DNA of 25,745 nucleotides from a virus. A program made the translations under genes and the position numbers. The DNA is taken from IMG/VR virus record IMGVR_UViG_3300009519_000012, one strand, 5' to 3'. Each line of letters begins with the position of its first letter. Position 1 is the stretch's first letter. Under the pieces are notes generated by a model. It had not been told where the DNA came from. It did no database searches and saw only the letters and a list, made by a program, of their open reading frames with translations. This document shows, in pieces, positions 5,253-11,213 of the stretch.

Positions 5253-7361
5253 TTAGCTCTCTTTCACAATTGTTCTCGGAGTTCCACCTGCTCCACCTTT
5301 TTGTGCAAGACGAGGTTGTTTTTTACCACTTGGATCACGTCCCCCCGCGTGCTGCCCTGCCGGTCCTTTTCCTCCCTTGCCACCTTGAGGCTGTCCTCCT
5401 CCTTCCAATACAGATGGATCAATCCCCATTTCCTTCAACTTCATGAAAGCCTTGGCCTTGGCAATAATTGCCATGACCTGCAATTCTGTTTCCTCGTTGA
5501 AAAACTTTTCTTTTTCCGTCGCGCCCGGAGAATCTCCCCAGTTCGCTATGTCTATTGTTTTCATCACTGTAGACCAGCTTAACGGGGCACCGCTGCGCTT
5601 CAGTTGCAACATCATCATCTGACGCTGCATAGCCGTAATCCTTAGCAGCGTATTCGGCACAGAAACAAGCCTCAACTTCTTTACAAAATACTTTGCCCGC
5701 GTCAGACGATCATACATTGATGGTGTAGTGGGAAATTGACCACCGAATAATTCATCTGGCAAGTGGCTAGGAACCATATCGTCAGGATTGAAGTCAAACA
5801 TTTCCTTTGCTATATTGTCTGGCCCTACATACTCAATAAGCCTTCCTGCGTCAAACCATTGAGGAATAAGAACTTTCATCCTTTCTCCTACGCGCTTGTT
5901 GGCTTTTTCTATCCTCATCGCTATCCCCTTAGCGATAGGACCGATAGACTCCAGCATTTTATCTGCTGTATCGTTTGCAATGTTCATCTTCATGTTGGCT
6001 AGGTTTCCAACATCGTTCAATCCTAGTTGAGCAAGTTCTTTCTCGCCTAGATATTTTAGGTATCCTGTATTTTCTCCGGTTACTCGAACTTCTTCTGGAA
6101 GAAGAGATTGTAATGTCTTCCTTGGTTCACTCCCACCAAACAATCCTAGCCTTTGATCTGGTGCAAACATATCCCATGTTTCAATGCTCTTTCCTCCGTT
6201 TTCATCTGCGTTATATCCCAACGGAGGGTCCATTTGCGCAGAAAGAACCTGATCCATAAGCCTTTCATGCTTGCGAATCGTTGATTCAATTGAAGATACA
6301 TCTCCTACTAACGATCTTCCTAGCGCCTCCCATGCCCAATCATCTACTGTGTACTGAATAACAGGTATTTTAGAGTCCCAATCGTAGGAAGTACCGTCAT
6401 ACATCGGCTTGTCGAGTCCTGATGACGTGATGATGAGCCGTAGGTTAGGGTAGATTCGGCAATCTTCCACCATTGCAGGACGCATGTATGGTTTACCATC
6501 TCTCATCCCTCCAAATATCGGTTGGCCCAAAGACGGAACTTTATAAAACCAAGACGTTCCCGGCTCGCCGCATTGCATCTCTTTTCCAGAAGTATTGATG
6601 CGTATGTCCCTTATAAATGTGTATCTTATCTCCGTATAAAGATTTCCAAAACTGCGACTCTGTGACTCTCCTACGCTTCCATAACGATACATCGCAGCAA
6701 AATCCTGCCGCTGTGCTTGTATCAGTGTCTTGTAATTATTCCGTCCGACTGTTTGTAATTGTCCTTGGAATAGAGGAAAGTTCGCACACGCCTCGGCAAT
6801 CGGCATATAATCGTAAATTGTTACAGCGTAAGCATCTTGAACGTCATTTGACTTTGAAGGAATCTGGACTGGAACTACATCTAATAGTCCTAGAGCATCA
6901 AATTTCATCTCTCTTGGTCCAAAATGATACTCGGACGCAACTACTTTAGGCCATAGGTATCCAATACCCATGACCGTCGCATACTGCAAAACTTTCAAGA
7001 TTTGGTAGGGAAAATCAGACTCTAAATAAACACATTTGCTTACCTTTGTAAGCATCTCCGCCATTGCTTTATAGGCAGGAACATCTGAGCTAAATCCAGC
7101 AATTTCACGTACTTCCGCTAAAGTTGTACAAAATTTATTGATATTATATTTTAACTGATTGGTTACTAACGAACTTCTAGTCTTGTCTTTGAATATACCA
7201 TCAAAGACACGAAGATTTTTCTCAAGATTTCGGTAGCAGGCTTGACCAGAAAGGAATCCCTCACCCTCTTTGATTTGTTCCTCAACCCAAGCGATTTTTT
7301 CCGCGTTGGATGCTTCAAAATTCGGAACTCGCCATTTTACGGTTTCAAGTTCAGCAGGCAC
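5253..7361 (-). CDS. Portal (head-tail connector) protein
   Basis: 702 aa, mostly helical, located between terminase and scaffold/MCP; Gly/Lys-rich C-terminal tail; size fits long P22-like portals. Confidence 0.8.
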   Translation of the reverse strand: MPAELETVKWRVPNFEASNAEKIAWVEEQIKEGEGFLSGQACYRNLEKNLRVFDGIFKDKTRSSLVTNQLKYNINKFCTTLAEVREIAGFSSDVPAYKAMAEMLTKVSKCVYLESDFPYQILKVLQYATVMGIGYLWPKVVASEYHFGPREMKFDALGLLDVVPVQIPSKSNDVQDAYAVTIYDYMPIAEACANFPLFQGQLQTVGRNNYKTLIQAQRQDFAAMYRYGSVGESQSRSFGNLYTEIRYTFIRDIRINTSGKEMQCGEPGTSWFYKVPSLGQPIFGGMRDGKPYMRPAMVEDCRIYPNLRLIITSSGLDKPMYDGTSYDWDSKIPVIQYTVDDWAWEALGRSLVGDVSSIESTIRKHERLMDQVLSAQMDPPLGYNADENGGKSIETWDMFAPDQRLGLFGGSEPRKTLQSLLPEEVRVTGENTGYLKYLGEKELAQLGLNDVGNLANMKMNIANDTADKMLESIGPIAKGIAMRIEKANKRVGERMKVLIPQWFDAGRLIEYVGPDNIAKEMFDFNPDDMVPSHLPDELFGGQFPTTPSMYDRLTRAKYFVKKLRLVSVPNTLLRITAMQRQMMMLQLKRSGAPLSWSTVMKTIDIANWGDSPGATEKEKFFNEETELQVMAIIAKAKAFMKLKEMGIDPSVLEGGGQPQGGKGGKGPAGQHAGGRDPSGKKQPRLAQKGGAGGTPRTIVKES

Positions 7362-7466: not shown

Positions 7467-8273
7467 CTATCGTCCGTTCTCATAACCCTCGCTGTGTAGA
7501 AATGACTCCCTTTGACGTTCCCAAGATTTCGGTTTCTTGCTAGACCACTCTTCCGCCGAACGAAGAAAATCACGATTCATATTATTCCTTGCGTTTTCCA
7601 TCAGTGTTCGCCTATGACGACGAATCTCATCCAATCTCGGTTCTTCAATTGCCCGTCTCCTCTCGTTCTCAATCCTGAGTTCACGACTTTCCTGCTGGCG
7701 TTGGAGTTCCGAATACTTCTCTGCCTCAAATACATTATTGCAAACGATCTTTTGTACATTTTTCGGAGCAGGACGATCTTCGGGAAGTCCGAGACTCAAT
7801 CTTCCGTTCCTATCCTTATAGTACACAATCTTCTTGTCAAGTTGTGCTGCCCCTCGACTCCAAGACTTCGGCCTCAGATCGTATGCCATATCCGATGCGC
7901 CTTGGGTAAAACGCTTCCATATATATAGGATAGCGTTCTTGATTCCTGGTCCGCGCATAGGAAAATCGGTCGTTACCATCCAATCCGTTGCACACCAATG
8001 AGTCACATCACTGATTACATCCTTGTTCTCTAGGAAATACGTCCCATTGTAGACAAACCAATTCCCGTCATGAAACCAGCAGCACTCCATCCTGCCGTCA
8101 TGCCATGCAATTACTTTTTGAGAATCCTTAGCGGGTACTCGTTTCTTGACACTCACCCACTTTTTAGACTCTTTCAATGCACGTGCTTGTTCCTTGCTCT
8201 CTTGCTTCAGCGCAGCAAGTTCCGCCTTGAGTTTCGATTCCCGTTGTTCGATCATTCCTTGCGCGTTAGGCAT
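7467..8273 (-). CDS. Hypothetical protein with a DUF551-like central segment
   Basis: KWVSVKKRVP...VTHW pattern typical of DUF551 phage proteins; the charged helical C-terminal half begins MAYDLR. Confidence 0.6.
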   Translation of the reverse strand: MPNAQGMIEQRESKLKAELAALKQESKEQARALKESKKWVSVKKRVPAKDSQKVIAWHDGRMECCWFHDGNWFVYNGTYFLENKDVISDVTHWCATDWMVTTDFPMRGPGIKNAILYIWKRFTQGASDMAYDLRPKSWSRGAAQLDKKIVYYKDRNGRLSLGLPEDRPAPKNVQKIVCNNVFEAEKYSELQRQQESRELRIENERRRAIEEPRLDEIRRHRRTLMENARNNMNRDFLRSAEEWSSKKPKSWERQRESFLHSEGYENGR

Positions 8274-8955
8274 TTTTCTTATCCTCGAAATTAGTATAAT
8301 ACCCTACATACGATTGCGTTGCCGCCCTCACCCATACTGTAGGATACTTCCCTCCTCCAGACGCGGTCAAATCGCCGCTAAGTGCAATGGAGTTAATTTT
8401 ATACCATCCATTTCTCACGGATTCTATGAACCGTTCCATCGTCATCGGATAACTAAACTTTGTCGTATACCAACCAGACTTCTCTAAAAATTCTTTTCTT
8501 GATTGATAAAACCTAGTAAACCCCATCCTCTTTAATTGGTGCTGCGTAGTATCTCCAGGAGCCGACACTTGCTCAATTACAAGCAATGGTCCTCTCGGAT
8601 CAATACATTCCTCTCCGTAATACCTAGCAATTTGTGCAACGATTGGAACTAACTCTACTGGACTCTGCTCGTGCGAAACATATTCCGCTACCTGTACGCA
8701 AGGTTCATCTATTTTTCCTACGCGCATCACAGAAATCACGGATGGGTCTACTCCAAGTCCATGCCCTGTTTCAACCCCTATACTATAATCGTATCCTTCG
8801 CGTGGTTCCTCGTAAATCGTCAAACCGTCTATTTCAAGTTTTCCTATCGCAATAGGAGAATACTCTTTAGGTGTTATCTCCGCAAATATGTTCGGCGCAA
8901 CCGCTGCAGTAGCCGCTCCGATACCTAAAAACTTAAAGAATGTTCGTCTGTTCAT
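8266..8955 (-). CDS. Terminase-large-subunit nuclease-domain paralog with an N-terminal twin-arginine (Tat-like) signal; probably catalytically inactive
   Basis: Likely start MNRRTFFKFLGIGAATAAVAP (ATG at 8955; the ORF track starts at 8994). Aligns by eye with the C-terminus of the adjacent TerL: IYEEPREGYDYSIGVETGHG vs VYEGPKEGFDYACGVDTADG, IEQVSAPGDTTQHQLKRMGF vs IEQVRGPGDTCQNQLKIMGF, VRAATQSY vs VRAAAQSY. Confidence 0.85.
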   Translation of the reverse strand: MNRRTFFKFLGIGAATAAVAPNIFAEITPKEYSPIAIGKLEIDGLTIYEEPREGYDYSIGVETGHGLGVDPSVISVMRVGKIDEPCVQVAEYVSHEQSPVELVPIVAQIARYYGEECIDPRGPLLVIEQVSAPGDTTQHQLKRMGFTRFYQSRKEFLEKSGWYTTKFSYPMTMERFIESVRNGWYKINSIALSGDLTASGGGKYPTVWVRAATQSYVGYYTNFEDKKNA

Positions 8956-9035
8956 TATTTCTGCTACCTTTCTAGTGTGCAAAAGTGAGCACACTGGTTA
9001 GTTCCTGCTTCTTCCAAACCGCTTGCCCCATCCCC

Positions 9036-11213
9036 CTACTTCCAGCTTCCTATCGACACCATGTTTGACCTACAGACTCCCTCGTTGGGGTCTACTGTCT
9101 CTCTCTTAGGTACATAATACCTCTTTTGGCTACGAGATGCAAAGTCATCCAAATCATGCGTAGTAAAATAACTTTGCGCAGCTGCCCTTACTCGATCATC
9201 AAACTGTCCTTCTCTATGTTCCATCTTTGATTTGCTTCCTGTTATGTGACGCTCAAGAGTCTTGCATTCCTCAATCAACCACTTTGATTTTGGAATATAC
9301 CATCCTCCGTTAATAGCGTCTACAAAACTCGTCATAAGCATTGGTACGCTCCACGAGTTTGAGTACCATCCCTGTTTAGTTTTAGATTCATCTTTAATCT
9401 TTTTTGAATCATACCTCTTGGGAGCATGATGATAATTAAAACCCATGATCTTTAACTGGTTTTGGCAAGTATCACCCGGTCCTCTAACTTGTTCAATGGC
9501 AAACTTTACCCCTCGATGATCCTTTGTTCTTTTCCCATACCATGTAGCCATACAAGCCACAAATGGAACCATCTGCGCAGGATTCATCCTCTTGCTCGTT
9601 AATTCACAAGCCTGCTCGTCACATCCATCTCCTTTCCCTACTTTAGAAATAGACGCACAAGCTCTCTCTTCATCTTCTTTATCAAGACCATCTGCCGTAT
9701 CTACTCCACAAGCATAATCAAATCCTTCTTTTGGTCCCTCATAAACCAATAATTTATCCATCGTATCTTTCTCATTGTATTCATTGACTGGAAGCAGTGG
9801 AATCATATTCCACTTATATTTCTCTCCTCTTCTTGAAGTCCATTCTACTTCTATAACAGACTTATCTTTATCTATTTCTGATTCGTCTGGGTAAAATGTT
9901 TCTTCAATTGAGTGTCCAGTAATCGCATAGGCTTGCATCGGTTCACTACGAACCATCTTATGTCCTCTTCCGTCTCCTATTACCTCATATACATTATTCT
10001 CAACCGCCGCTATAACGTCTGGGTCAAATACTGTGTCATGTACTCCTGTCAATGCTTCATAGTCATCCGCCGCCATCTGAGCAAGCCAAATCTTTTGCGT
10101 GTGATTCTTACACGCTTGGTCATAATTAAATTGCCAAAACCACTGCTGTTCAACTGGCATACGCCAATCTTTACCGACTACTCTTGATAAATATGGCGTA
10201 TTACGAACATAAGACTCACATCGTGTTACGTGCTTTCGCGTTACATCCGAAATTACTCTATTCCAATCTCCCGGTACAGGAAACTTACGAACCCAATCAT
10301 CCTCTGGATAAAGATCAGGAACCATCACCCACGGAATAAAGATAGGACATAATCTGGATTTTCCTAAAGGCCAATCCTCTTTTGAGCTTTTCCATGTATC
10401 AGCAAGCCATCCAGTATTTCCACCTCCCGTTCCCTCAAGGACCATAAACAGATTCCTAGATGAGTGCGTTGCTCTTAACAATCCTTCCTCAATCGTCTTC
10501 TTCGCATCCTTAAAATCCGCCAACTCTGAGACGTGAATATTTGTAGGCGTCCATCCTTGCGCTAGACCCGTCGCCTGTGATCCTGATTGAATAGAAAGAA
10601 TCGACTTGTTTTCATACTCTCTAATATACTGAGAGTCTTTTATCGTGCTAGGAACCAACCAAAAAGGGCAGTTATCGTGAGCGGTATCAATAATTCTTCC
10701 AATCAACTCTGACTTCTTAGATTCTACAGAAGCCATAATTGATTGCGTGTGTGGAATGAATAACATACGATTGATAAATTTAAGAGCCGTCTTGGTCGTG
10801 ATGCCAACCTGGCGAGCCTTCAAGATAATCAGTTCTATAGATACTTGATCTTCGTCGAATTTTTCAATTACTGAGTCAAATATCTGCTGTGATAGCCTAT
10901 TTTGAAATTTATATATCTCTCCCTTCTCGTTGCACACGTATGCGTAGCGGCTCTCCCAATAATTTGAATCTAAACGACATAACACCTTTTCGTTTTGGAT
11001 AAATCTCTGTACTTCTTGTATCCTTTTCTCTGTTAATCCAGATTTTACTCTAATATACGTGTTTTTTGAGTTACTTGAATCATCTTTATATGTGATCTTT
11101 TTCATGTATTCTATGAAGTCTTGAACCTCTGCTAGTGAATGATAAACAGGTTCCCAACCTTCACTAGCAGAGAAGTAGTTTAAGTGCTTATCTATTGTCT
11201 TTCTTGAATACAT
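9036..11213 (-). CDS. terL: Terminase large subunit
   Basis: Walker A-like IILKARQVGITT, Walker B-like IHVSELAD, coupling motif VLEGTGGG, RNase H-like nuclease motifs CGVDTADG, IEQ and FDDRVRA. Confidence 0.92.
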   Translation of the reverse strand: MYSRKTIDKHLNYFSASEGWEPVYHSLAEVQDFIEYMKKITYKDDSSNSKNTYIRVKSGLTEKRIQEVQRFIQNEKVLCRLDSNYWESRYAYVCNEKGEIYKFQNRLSQQIFDSVIEKFDEDQVSIELIILKARQVGITTKTALKFINRMLFIPHTQSIMASVESKKSELIGRIIDTAHDNCPFWLVPSTIKDSQYIREYENKSILSIQSGSQATGLAQGWTPTNIHVSELADFKDAKKTIEEGLLRATHSSRNLFMVLEGTGGGNTGWLADTWKSSKEDWPLGKSRLCPIFIPWVMVPDLYPEDDWVRKFPVPGDWNRVISDVTRKHVTRCESYVRNTPYLSRVVGKDWRMPVEQQWFWQFNYDQACKNHTQKIWLAQMAADDYEALTGVHDTVFDPDVIAAVENNVYEVIGDGRGHKMVRSEPMQAYAITGHSIEETFYPDESEIDKDKSVIEVEWTSRRGEKYKWNMIPLLPVNEYNEKDTMDKLLVYEGPKEGFDYACGVDTADGLDKEDEERACASISKVGKGDGCDEQACELTSKRMNPAQMVPFVACMATWYGKRTKDHRGVKFAIEQVRGPGDTCQNQLKIMGFNYHHAPKRYDSKKIKDESKTKQGWYSNSWSVPMLMTSFVDAINGGWYIPKSKWLIEECKTLERHITGSKSKMEHREGQFDDRVRAAAQSYFTTHDLDDFASRSQKRYYVPKRETVDPNEGVCRSNMVSIGSWK

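Follow-up and report, generated by a model that had tools for sequence, protein, structure and literature searches.

Why would a phage keep, directly behind the gene for its large terminase, a second copy of the terminase nuclease that bears an export-type leader and appears to have lost the residues needed for cutting? The question is raised by one gene in a 25,745-nt stretch of viral DNA (IMG/VR record IMGVR_UViG_3300009519_000012), referred to here in its full length as the window. A preliminary description, made from the sequence alone, had placed at positions 8266-8955 a duplicate of only the RNase H-like domain of TerL, fused to a possible twin-arginine (Tat) signal. The whole gene (8266..8955, minus strand) encodes a 229-aa protein, P0001, composed of a Tat-type leader, a linker and a TerL nuclease-like domain that is predicted to be dead. 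Its open reading frame runs from an ATG at 8955 to a stop codon at 8266-8268. An in-frame GTG at 8994 would lengthen the protein by 13 residues, but the start is assigned to 8955 because all relatives begin with MNRR. The terL stop codon and the P0001 start are separated by an 80-bp spacer, in which a terminator-like site was looked for and none was found; the hairpin in this spacer is no better than those of shuffled sequences (z -0.53). At the other end, as read from the sequence, the last codons of P0001 (…AAA AAT GCC TAA) also supply the start of the next gene (ATG CCT AA), an overlap of 8 nt (8266..8273, minus strand) that accounts for the conserved KRNA/KRNV C-termini of all the cargo types described below. 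P0001 lies within the late operon that extends from terL to portal and is co-transcribed with it. There are no tRNA genes within the window.

The parent gene, terL (9036..11213, minus strand), encodes 725 aa with intact GVD, IEQ and DDR nuclease motifs and is assigned to the PHROG terminase large subunit (E 2.4e-10). Its product shares 27% identity over 96% of its length with the TerL of Tunturiibacter phage Tunturi_1; a sequence search against solved structures gave no matches for the TerL or the portal of the window. According to BLASTP and a phylogenetic tree, TerL residues 482-700 (9114..9770, minus strand) form the parent-type domain of the paralog. Residues 39-185 of P0001 align with TerL residues 482-639 at 41% identity over 158 columns (BLASTP, E 1e-35), and profile alignment stretches the match as far as the AA(A/T)QSY helix. 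A profile of the domain behind the leader (the tagged domain) in turn recovers hundreds of TerLs of 600-1350 aa. The AlphaFold2 model of residues 40-225 (8281..8838, minus strand) consists of blocks mostly at pLDDT 76-95; in Foldseek searches of the PDB it matches the RB49 gp17 nuclease (3c6a, E 5.6e-9) as well as 3cpe, 5m1f, 5tge and 4dkw, and in a structure atlas it reaches TM scores of 0.70-0.77 to Terminase_6C clusters. In the model, P0001 is a complete terminase nuclease domain of the RNase H-like, Terminase_6C type, in line with the paralogy first proposed. No ATPase domain accompanies it: P0001 is a separate reading frame with its own stop codon, and the approximately 40 tagged relatives, all of 200-280 aa, are likewise never joined to an N-terminal packaging ATPase. 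The C-terminal tail of TerL, roughly 35 residues, is also absent.

Could such a domain still cut DNA? The catalytic residues were mapped from the fold, the secondary structure of the model and the invariance of positions in approximately 110 TerLs. The TerL motif GVDTADG pairs with GVETGHG in P0001, which places E62 (codon GAA, 8770..8772, minus strand) at the end of strand 1, on the site of the first catalytic Asp, where TerLs have G-V/I-D. When the tagged family is aligned with TerLs, this site holds E, D, Y, F, V, H, S or Q in the tagged forms. Further along, FDDRVRAAAQSY of TerL aligns with PTVWVRAATQSY of P0001, and E128 of the IEQ motif (codon GAG, 8572..8574, minus strand) is the sole active-site acid retained, being invariant in the tagged family alignment and kept in most TerLs; the PGD and GWY motifs are shared as well. 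Towards the C-terminus, ...HREGQFDDRVRAAAQSY in TerL stands against ...GGGKYPTVWVRAATQSY in P0001. Here a shortened variable segment, followed by the start of the AA(A/T)QSY helix, replaces the TerL hairpin and its DD (residues 189-216; 8308..8391, minus strand; FDDRVRA in TerL, PTVWVRA in P0001). The DD motif occurs in none of the tagged forms; all of the TerLs compared (~110) keep G-V/I-D, and DDR where it can be aligned. The full set of metal-binding acids of the fold (the strand-1 Asp, a Glu/Asp after strand 4 and an Asp before the C-terminal helix) is thus not present in P0001. Every motif quoted in the preliminary description (GVE for GVD, the lost DD, the retained IEQ Glu) was found, and with the first catalytic Asp and the DD lost family-wide the tagged family is predicted to be non-catalytic.

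The leader (residues 1-25; 8881..8955, minus strand) comprises MNRRTFFK, a Gly/Ala-rich uncharged stretch and IFA before E26. Its twin-arginine motif reads N-R-R-T-F-F-K, close to the S/T-R-R-x-F-L-K consensus; the family pattern is RR-x-F-F/L-K, and among 45 leader proteins R4 is invariant and R3 nearly so. The h-region, FLGIGAATAAVAPNIFA, has 17 uncharged residues and ends in I-F-A; the leaders of relatives end in V/M/L/I-L-A, with Lys frequent in the c-region. In close relatives the leader is nearly invariant, while distant members keep the RR though their h-region has diverged, and one of these distant leaders ends in a lipobox-like LPAC. At the DNA level, the window holds the leader pattern a single time, whereas 100 shuffles give an expectation of zero; this is well beyond chance. 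Leader codons vary at synonymous sites, so the constraint probably acts on the peptide rather than on a nucleotide-level element such as a pac site or an RNA; in some pairs leader pS is slightly lower (0.42-0.65, from only 25 codons) than domain pS (0.7-0.9). The leader is followed by a linker (residues 26-39; 8839..8880, minus strand) that varies in length and sequence across the family alignment and is modelled at pLDDT <50.

Is this a functional Tat signal? The form claimed in the preliminary description holds, down to the hydrophobic stretch ending IFA/E, and 32 of the 45 leader proteins match TIGR01409 at E<=0.1 (best 1.8e-5). The formal prediction stands only in part: P0001 itself falls just below both curated cut-offs (Pfam TAT_signal, 16.9 bits against 22.7; TIGR01409, 15.0 bits against 16.7), whereas two relatives, P0004 (17.7) and P0017 (19.3), exceed that of TIGR01409. 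The atlas feature search gave weak leads only, and these were to Tat-signal proteins. The leader is fused to the domain in every family member, which sets aside a fusion created by this one assembly, and the architecture of a Tat-type leader on a TerL nuclease fold without catalytic acids holds throughout the family. Judged by its motifs, the leader has each of the three Tat-signal parts, and it persists throughout the family; P0001 is probably targeted to Tat. Two observations bear on routing: a genuine PhoX-like Tat substrate bears a look-alike leader, in favour of Tat, and the position of the P0001 leader just under both curated cut-offs counts against the export reading.

A duplicate without catalysis could simply be decaying. 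There are, however, approximately 40 full-length relatives carrying the same fusion, 27 of them at 45-62% identity to P0001, with intact frames, pN of 0.17-0.40 against pS of 0.57-0.91, and omega of 0.11-0.28 where it can be estimated. The variant of the window recurs at ≥99% identity on at least 60 contigs, with frameshifts absent, and some 28 residues, in the core and on the surface, are invariant in the family alignment of the nuclease-like cargo. The whole fold of the tagged domain is thus kept under purifying selection, and the recent decay that the preliminary description had envisaged is not seen. Regarding its origin, 36 of the 39 tagged forms tested make up one clade (SH-aLRT 99), which adjoins the clade with the TerL of the window (98). 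A separate second origin of P0049, P0090 and P0120, hinted at by a quick tree, is not supported, since a forced single clade has the better likelihood (p-AU 0.83). The family derives from the 3' half of a terL belonging to this lineage, and the topology test does not reject a single origin. Among cultured phages only TerLs match, with no equivalent of the tagged gene, and a scan of 185,579 species genomes found no prophage copy of P0001, the sole find being a PhoX-like Tat protein. The phage looks lytic because no copy occurs in these genomes.

The leader is not confined to the nuclease. In sister phages, the same leader at the same locus carries at least eight other cargo groups (~100 collected sequences). 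Among these, one conserved class derives from residues 414-460 of the portal (cargo HMM against portal, E 5e-10); the portal gene of the window (5253..7361, minus strand; 702 aa, PHROG portal) holds the source type of this class, a piece of only ~47 residues that is not a fold. Some cargos measure only 47-60 residues and cannot be recognisably related to any virion protein, which counts against the mimic reading preferred below. Searches of the other cargos against Pfam and PHROGs returned nothing above threshold, a match of the L016 cargo to Podovirus_Gp16 (17.4 bits) being sub-threshold. The leader is therefore a portable module with interchangeable cargo. Gene placement also differs: in phage L002 the tagged gene follows a head-tail adaptor gene, far from any terL. 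A split terminase in L002 was ruled out, since the 449-aa gene upstream is SU10-adaptor-like and not a TerL ATPase. Neither the swappable cargo nor this alternative placement had appeared in the preliminary description.

On the other side of the leader gene lies a 268-aa gene (7467..8273, minus strand) with a coiled coil, a DUF551-like insert and a conserved C-terminal core domain of ~125 aa. The window, L001, L004, L005 and L007-L029 all have it behind the leader gene; it is common to every cargo type and does not co-vary with the cargo. A short form is found between terL and portal in the distant, leaderless phage L024 (E 4.9e-7). Within the phage group this gene belongs to the conserved core. 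A fold search with its protein matched nothing; the idea that the protein binds the leader as a chaperone, or is co-exported with it as a hitchhiker, is weakened because L024 has the core domain at this position without any leader gene.

Does the cargo have a function at all? The locus might be the by-product of a recombination hot-spot, at which a small leader gene picked up in-frame pieces of its neighbours. The flanking genes do supply the cargo pieces, variable accessory genes occur between terL and portal, and the conserved 5' leader together with the 3' overlap could guide exchange. Against functionless cargo, the nuclease class forms an old clade whose frames are intact, with the low omega and the invariant residues given above; it also occurs away from terL, and the variant of the window is near-invariant on its contigs. 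For the nuclease cargo it is largely refuted, and we regard this reading as hardly credible.

If the cargo has a function, where does it act? Taking the probable Tat targeting as a starting point, we tentatively favour a protein that is made late, is routed to Tat and mimics a part of the packaging motor, without catalysis and by binding alone. P0001 would fold in the cytoplasm and be recognised by TatBC through its RR leader, after which the domain, already folded, would be moved to the periplasmic side. Cleavage could then follow IFA (xLA in relatives), or the uncut leader could serve as an anchor, and the domain on the periplasmic side would bind rather than cut. The whole chain, up to export and a binding role, is possible, and we put it forward with reserve.

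Alternatively, the leader may be what works. Its identity of 70-90% exceeds the 45-60% of the cargo, and on account of this stronger conservation it could itself be the working part. It might occupy or overload TatBC late in infection, blocking host Tat export or draining the proton-motive force, with the cargo as a stable folded filler that is harmless without catalysis. The interchangeability of unrelated cargos agrees with this, as does a fold kept without its catalytic residues. A filler, however, would hardly need a nuclease-like cargo with many residues invariant over long divergence, or two cargo classes each of which is conserved. We know of no precedent and consider this reading very unlikely.

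It is also conceivable that the protein never leaves the cytoplasm. Docked at TatBC or in the membrane without full export, the leader would leave its cargo in the cytoplasm, where TerL-like cargo could hold the portal and portal-like cargo could hold TerL; packaging would in this way be positioned or timed at the membrane. Such a tether or regulator would suit a gene co-transcribed between terL and portal, one or two leader genes per phage and two conserved cargo classes derived from two motor partners; moreover, the identity of the tagged nuclease between phages tracks portal identity more closely than TerL identity. The C-terminal tail of TerL is the portal-binding part in several phages, and it is just this tail that P0001 misses. 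Many relatives in the group (L020, L023-L025) have other cargo or no leader gene, which argues against a core packaging part, and in L002 the gene lies far from terL. Nor would tethering call for more than a plain membrane helix, whereas both the RR motif and the xLA end have been conserved. A role in packaging at the membrane seems unlikely.

A decoy for cytoplasmic Avs-type sensors of TerL and portal, as raised in the preliminary description, would be another cytoplasmic role: the mimic would soak up the sensor, and the leader might drag the complex to the membrane. TerL and portal are reportedly the two known Avs triggers, exactly the two sources of conserved cargo, and polymorphic cargo on a constant leader resembles an arms-race locus. 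However, the active-site acids, which Avs3 contacts according to the preliminary description, are precisely those lost, although the fold is kept; the portal piece of ~47 residues has no fold; and a Tat leader would take the protein out of the cytoplasm. On balance a decoy would be quite unlikely.

What would the Tat-routed mimic, which we prefer, do at the envelope? Since its cargo is polymorphic and copied from packaging-motor parts, it would most likely be a competitor or mimic in an envelope conflict; that it plays a conflict role there, against rival or superinfecting phages or host defence, is itself somewhat doubtful. To our knowledge neither portal nor TerL acts outside the cytoplasm, so a periplasmic mimic would lack an obvious target. 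A late gene in an apparently lytic phage also fits classical superinfection exclusion poorly. In the broadest form of the proposal, the locus would be a polymorphic Tat-routed effector locus, in which parts of the phage's own motor (the TerL nuclease, a segment of the portal channel) and further small domains acquired the leader by recombination, and the resulting mimics at the translocon or in the periplasm intercept genome-delivery or packaging parts of rival phages, or host defence. This we regard as doubtful.

If true, such a locus would be an undescribed phage accessory system and the first terminase fold used outside packaging. As far as we know, the terminase nuclease fold occurs only within packaging motors, and Tat substrates encoded by phages have received hardly any study. 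In the literature no paper was found that links terminase domains with Tat signals, and no published description was found of the arrangement of a Tat leader with a dead terminase nuclease, nor of a role for it, as the preliminary description had supposed. Should these proteins be exported, phages would be delivering look-alikes of parts of their own motor to the envelope, and a new kind of interference between phages, or between phage and host, would open up. If cytoplasmic, P0001 would be a candidate regulator of, or decoy for, two proteins read by Avs sensors. In either case the family offers a ready natural set of leader-cargo swaps.

How does the locus compare with known systems? The closest likeness is to large-terminase nucleases (the C-terminal domain of T4 and RB49 gp17, 3C6A/3CPE; TerL of G20c and P74-26, 5M1F/5TGE; Pfam Terminase_6C), which share the RNase H-like fold over residues 40-225 (TM 0.6-0.77). 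Differently from these, P0001 has no ATPase domain, first Asp, DD with its hairpin segment or C-terminal tail, adds a Tat-type leader, and is an accessory rather than a core gene. The phi29 packaging ATPase gp16 reportedly has a vestigial nuclease domain at its C-terminus. As in P0001, a terminase-type nuclease fold would there be kept without catalysis and reused for binding, which for P0001 is proposed; the gp16 domain, however, stays in the motor protein and serves packaging, whereas P0001 is encoded on its own and bears an export leader. The sole trace of homology to gp16 is the sub-threshold 17.4-bit Pfam match from the L016 cargo. Among Tat substrates, a PhoX-type protein of 519 aa (L006) has a leader (MNRRTFLEFLGLG...) of the same type as, and closely similar to, that of P0001 (MNRRTFFKFLGIG...). 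The cargo of P0001 differs from PhoX-type substrates in being a packaging-enzyme domain, without known cofactor or periplasmic chemistry, that is phage-encoded in a late operon.

The organisation of the locus has two further parallels. T4-type internal-protein loci combine a conserved capsid-targeting leader with variable cargo, and the leader locus likewise shows a short, near-invariant N-terminal leader with polymorphic, unrelated cargo at one place. Many of its leaders end in L-A-E, resembling the T4-type L/I-x-E cleavage motif; they nevertheless fit Tat models (RR, h-region) and not the T4 capsid-targeting sequence, and no prohead protease was identified within the window. Polymorphic toxin and effector loci join a conserved trafficking N-terminus to a C-terminus that can be exchanged, and an immunity gene follows (PMC3482391). 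Here, in contrast, the cargo is tiny or predicted to be catalytically dead, and the downstream gene neither co-varies with it, as in an immunity pair, nor depends on the leader, being present in short form in leaderless L024. What the leader locus does share with polymorphic toxins is a constant trafficking module, cassette-like variable C-termini and conserved flanks.

Minus-strand terL (9036-11213, 725 aa) is followed in the window by an 80-bp spacer, the 229-aa ORF P0001 (8955 to 8266), a 268-aa gene (8273 to 7467) that overlaps the P0001 stop by 8 nt, and the portal gene (7361 to 5253), all on the same strand. P0001 residues 39-185 align with TerL residues 482-639 at 41% identity (BLASTP, E 1e-35), confirming the paralogy to the TerL nuclease part proposed in the preliminary description. 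The active-site changes read there are also present: the first catalytic Asp (GVD in TerL) has become Glu (GVE, E62), the IEQ Glu is retained (E128) and the C-terminal DD is gone (FDDRVRA to PTVWVRA). An AlphaFold2 model based on 24 relatives has the complete terminase nuclease fold; confidence is high across residues 40-225 (pLDDT blocks mostly 76-95), and leader and linker are disordered. Its top PDB matches in Foldseek are all terminase nucleases, with RB49 and T4 gp17 (E 5.6e-9 to 4e-8), G20c and P74-26 among the best, then those of SPP1, P22 and herpesvirus; against TerLs and Terminase_6C clusters of the ESM Atlas, TM is 0.70-0.77. In the model E62 lies at the end of strand 1 and E128 after strand 4; the missing DD would sit before the last long helix. 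Mapped by fold and conservation rather than by residue-level superposition, these are the predicted metal-binding acid places of the fold. When the three active-site stretches are tabulated, every TerL has G-V/I/C-D in the first and, where alignable, DDR in the third. Among the leader-bearing forms, the relatives with the same Tat-type N-terminus, the first site is E, D, Y, F, V, H, S, Q or a gap, none of these forms has DD, and nearly all retain the IEQ Glu. P0001 is a pseudo-enzyme derived from a terminase nuclease; lacking an ATPase domain and the full set of catalytic acids, it does not count as a terminase.

The N-terminus reads, as first described, MNRRTFFK followed by 17 uncharged residues, ending IFA before E26. 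In Tat signal prediction the window copy scores just under both curated thresholds (Pfam TAT_signal, 16.9 versus 22.7; TIGR01409, 15.0 versus 16.7); 32 of 45 leader-bearing proteins match TIGR01409 at E<=0.1 (best 1.8e-5), some above the curated cut-off. In close relatives the leader is almost invariant (MNRRSFFKFLGIGAATAAVAPK-x-LA) and more conserved than the domain that follows. Distant members have a quite different hydrophobic core and keep the RR-x-F motif, the uncharged stretch and the small-residue end (MNRRDFLRLSAITAAA..., MIDRRKFLKYIGLAP... and MINRRHFMGLLGATAAVSVLPAC..., the end of the third resembling a lipobox). Leader codons vary at synonymous sites between loci, and the constraint therefore probably acts on the peptide. 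A closely similar leader is found on a 519-aa PhoX-like protein of a Flavobacteriales MAG; PhoX-like proteins are a classical kind of Tat substrate. The leader is predicted to behave as a true Tat signal.

How old is the fusion, and is it maintained? A word-indexed search found 27 relatives of 127-251 aa, almost all full-length, at 45-62% identity. Searching 1.84 billion representatives with a profile gave 1044 matches at E<=1e-3, including full TerLs of 600-1350 aa; about 40 short proteins align from profile position 1, leader included. In a 161-row tree, one clade (SH-aLRT 99) unites 36 of the 39 leader-bearing forms and adjoins the clade (98) with the window's own TerL. Three tagged forms fall outside, and enforcing one group improves the likelihood and is not rejected (p-AU 0.83). 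P0032, a tagged protein, retains the TerL segment preceding the nuclease domain. Given the tree, the p-AU value and P0032, a single old duplication of a terL 3' half is the simplest history. Selection on the nuclease-like domain is purifying: between nine loci with DNA, pN is 0.17-0.40 against a pS of 0.57-0.91, and omega is 0.11-0.28 where dS is estimable. The window's protein occurs as 15 variants at >=99% identity, differing by single substitutions and free of frameshifts, on at least 60 contigs from four sources (JGI, ENA, Logan and NCBI; longest contig, 36 kb), so the window phage is common in public data. Given these values and the intact variants, the survey of related phages proposed earlier thus recovers a conserved leader-nuclease family, and neither a decaying duplicate nor an RR leader fused as a separate ORF only in this assembly. 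That the locus is a neutral by-product of recombination is extremely improbable, and for the nuclease-like cargo largely excluded.

Other arrangements of the domain occur. P0085 (331 aa) belongs to the tagged clade and has, instead of a Tat leader, a different N-terminal region of ~150 aa; its first Asp is Asn. Nine proteins of 260-320 aa (P0114, P0117, P0122, P0130, P0141, P0154, P0155, P0162 and P0165) have neither ATPase part nor Tat leader, N-termini like ...WNGRLL(I/M)W and an intact TerL-type G-V-D, with DD alignable only in P0117. These proteins group with other TerL clades and could be nuclease subunits encoded on their own, or else fragments cut at contig ends.

The nearest cultured TerL, that of Tunturiibacter phage Tunturi_1, is 27% identical; no equivalent of the P0001 gene was found in cultured phages and no copy in 185,579 species genomes. 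The window has ~44% G+C and no tRNA genes. The 268-aa protein downstream of P0001 combines a coiled coil and a DUF551-like insert with a conserved domain of ~125 aa at its C-terminus. In L004 and L012-L016 the leader gene is followed by this core domain only; the short form (MPNAQ...) has ~130 aa in L004, L012 and L016. In the window (7467-8273, minus strand), coiled coil and DUF551-like domain are apparently inserted after the first five codons of the core gene. L024, a phage more distantly related and lacking the leader gene, has a remote homologue of the core domain (E 4.9e-7) in its terL-portal interval. The adjacency of leader and core genes is therefore positional, and the leader gene is an insertion that separates terL from a core gene. 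L020 and L025 have a similar-sized ORF at this position, below the search threshold and alike by eye only. Searches of Pfam, of PDB sequences and of solved PDB folds gave no match to the core domain.

Several sister phages carry a recurring set of further small accessory genes between terL and leader (L009:848-2836, L021:2647-3928, L027:7192-8686, L005:1-1462, L018:4644-5700), which the window lacks. They encode a charged ~78-aa protein, a ~90-120-aa protein ending ...NKPRKENDGF.PD.EL, a ~76-aa protein ending YRVWRVK and a ~230-aa protein with the motif CRGTDEFELVIKY. With no terminator-like site found between terL and the leader gene, the latter should be expressed late, with the packaging genes. 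TerLs of this lineage often reach 900-1350 aa, a window-type sequence being split by large inserts (L027:3194-7228, 1344 aa; L007:1-2748, 915 aa, cut at the contig end; L021:3-2633; P0039, P0042, P0053, P0064 and others). A neighbour of P0024 weakly matches Intein_splicing, and the inserts are probably inteins. L018 (2489-4711 and 7200-9089) has three genes that are each split into two ORFs: terL (631 + 88 aa), portal (431 + 177 aa) and the 268-aa-type gene (116 + 170 aa). The splits reflect either a degraded phage or sequencing errors.

Beyond the preliminary description, comparison of these loci indicates that the leader is portable and its cargo, the part behind it, exchangeable. In ~24 related IMG/VR contigs, most with 65-85% portal identity to the window, the same gene order is found again (terL, leader gene, 268-aa-type gene, portal), and the leader is 75-100% identical while the cargo differs. 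The cargo is the nuclease-like domain in L007-L015, L004, L005 and L011; a ~100-aa domain with the motif YVRLAPTSLPVSAGD...GYGIG...PGYYGFIQ in L017, L021, L022, L026 and L027; a small GSGY-type domain in L016 and L017; and short helical pieces in L018 and L029. A further, conserved class consists of ~47 residues homologous to portal residues 414-460 (BLAST against the window portal, E 5.6e-11); an HMM of nine cargo sequences, most with the portal segment, gave E 5e-10 and matched over 20 portals, all at this position. Proteins of this class (P0205, P0215-P0217, P0223; loci L019:11311-11580, L028:8988-9257, L017:4556-4879) have 84-108 aa and the motif ...LP..VQV..EF...LK..Q.KQ.QLGL.DI.ALQKVKRNA. 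L017 has a tandem pair of leader genes. Leader-only searches added 55 matches (22 and 33), the previously unseen ones of 68-150 aa, bringing the total to ~100 leader-bearing sequences in at least eight cargo groups. All cargo types share a K-R-N-A/V C-terminus, because the cargo stop overlaps the start of the next gene (MPNAQ...); the locus is therefore a variable middle between two conserved flanks. A leader more conserved than its cargo would suit Tat jamming, in which the leader would be the effector and the cargo would serve as filler, but each cargo class is long conserved, and this reading is very unlikely. It is also quite unlikely that the proteins are decoys for sensors of TerL and portal, Avs for example: the portal-derived cargo makes the idea more appealing, but the very active-site residues are lost, the portal piece is small and the leader is of export type.

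The nuclease-type gene is also found outside the terL-portal interval, after an SU10-adaptor-like gene among tail genes in L002 and after small ORFs on the P0024 and P0026 contigs, and is therefore a mobile accessory gene rather than a fixed part of the packaging module. The leader itself occurs in unrelated, larger phages (L030:8001-8306, on a 134-kb contig, and L002:2912-3550) in a different context, where its neighbours are an adaptor-like gene and a tail-like gene of 1200 aa. In L030, the final 18 cargo residues weakly resemble (67-72% identity) residues 383-413 of this neighbouring tail-like protein (1199 or 1249 aa). Between phages, portal identities of 85, 84, 76, 69 and 66% go with paralog identities of ~60, 55, 55, 53 and 49%, and L011 and the window share 87% in the TerL nuclease domain and 55% in the paralog. 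Identity of the nuclease-like protein thus goes with that of portal rather than TerL; in so few loci, this may come from nothing more than linkage to the genes downstream. A role as membrane tether or as regulator of packaging would agree with the gene position and the two motor-derived cargos, but is unlikely for an accessory, mobile gene that lacks the TerL tail and conserves export features.

What, then, could a folded, acid-depleted domain under purifying selection do behind a conserved Tat-type leader in the late operon? We tentatively prefer a Tat-routed mimic of a packaging-motor part, acting in an envelope conflict, and consider the chain as far as export and binding possible, if somewhat short of probable. 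TatBC would recognise the leader, the folded domain would cross to the periplasmic side, the leader would be processed after IFA or xLA, and the domain would bind, not cut. The weak point of the Tat-routed mimic is that we know of nothing in the periplasm that a TerL-like or portal-like piece would target.

The preliminary description knew of no role for this architecture, and our literature search likewise found none and nothing linking terminase domains to Tat signals; the parts are known and their combination undescribed. For a nuclease fold kept for binding, we take the C-terminal domain of phi29 gp16 to be the closest analogue. T4 internal-protein loci and polymorphic effector loci, also among the closest analogues, share with the P0001 locus a constant leader and swappable cargo, but both differ from it in the type of leader and in its downstream gene, which does not co-vary with the cargo.
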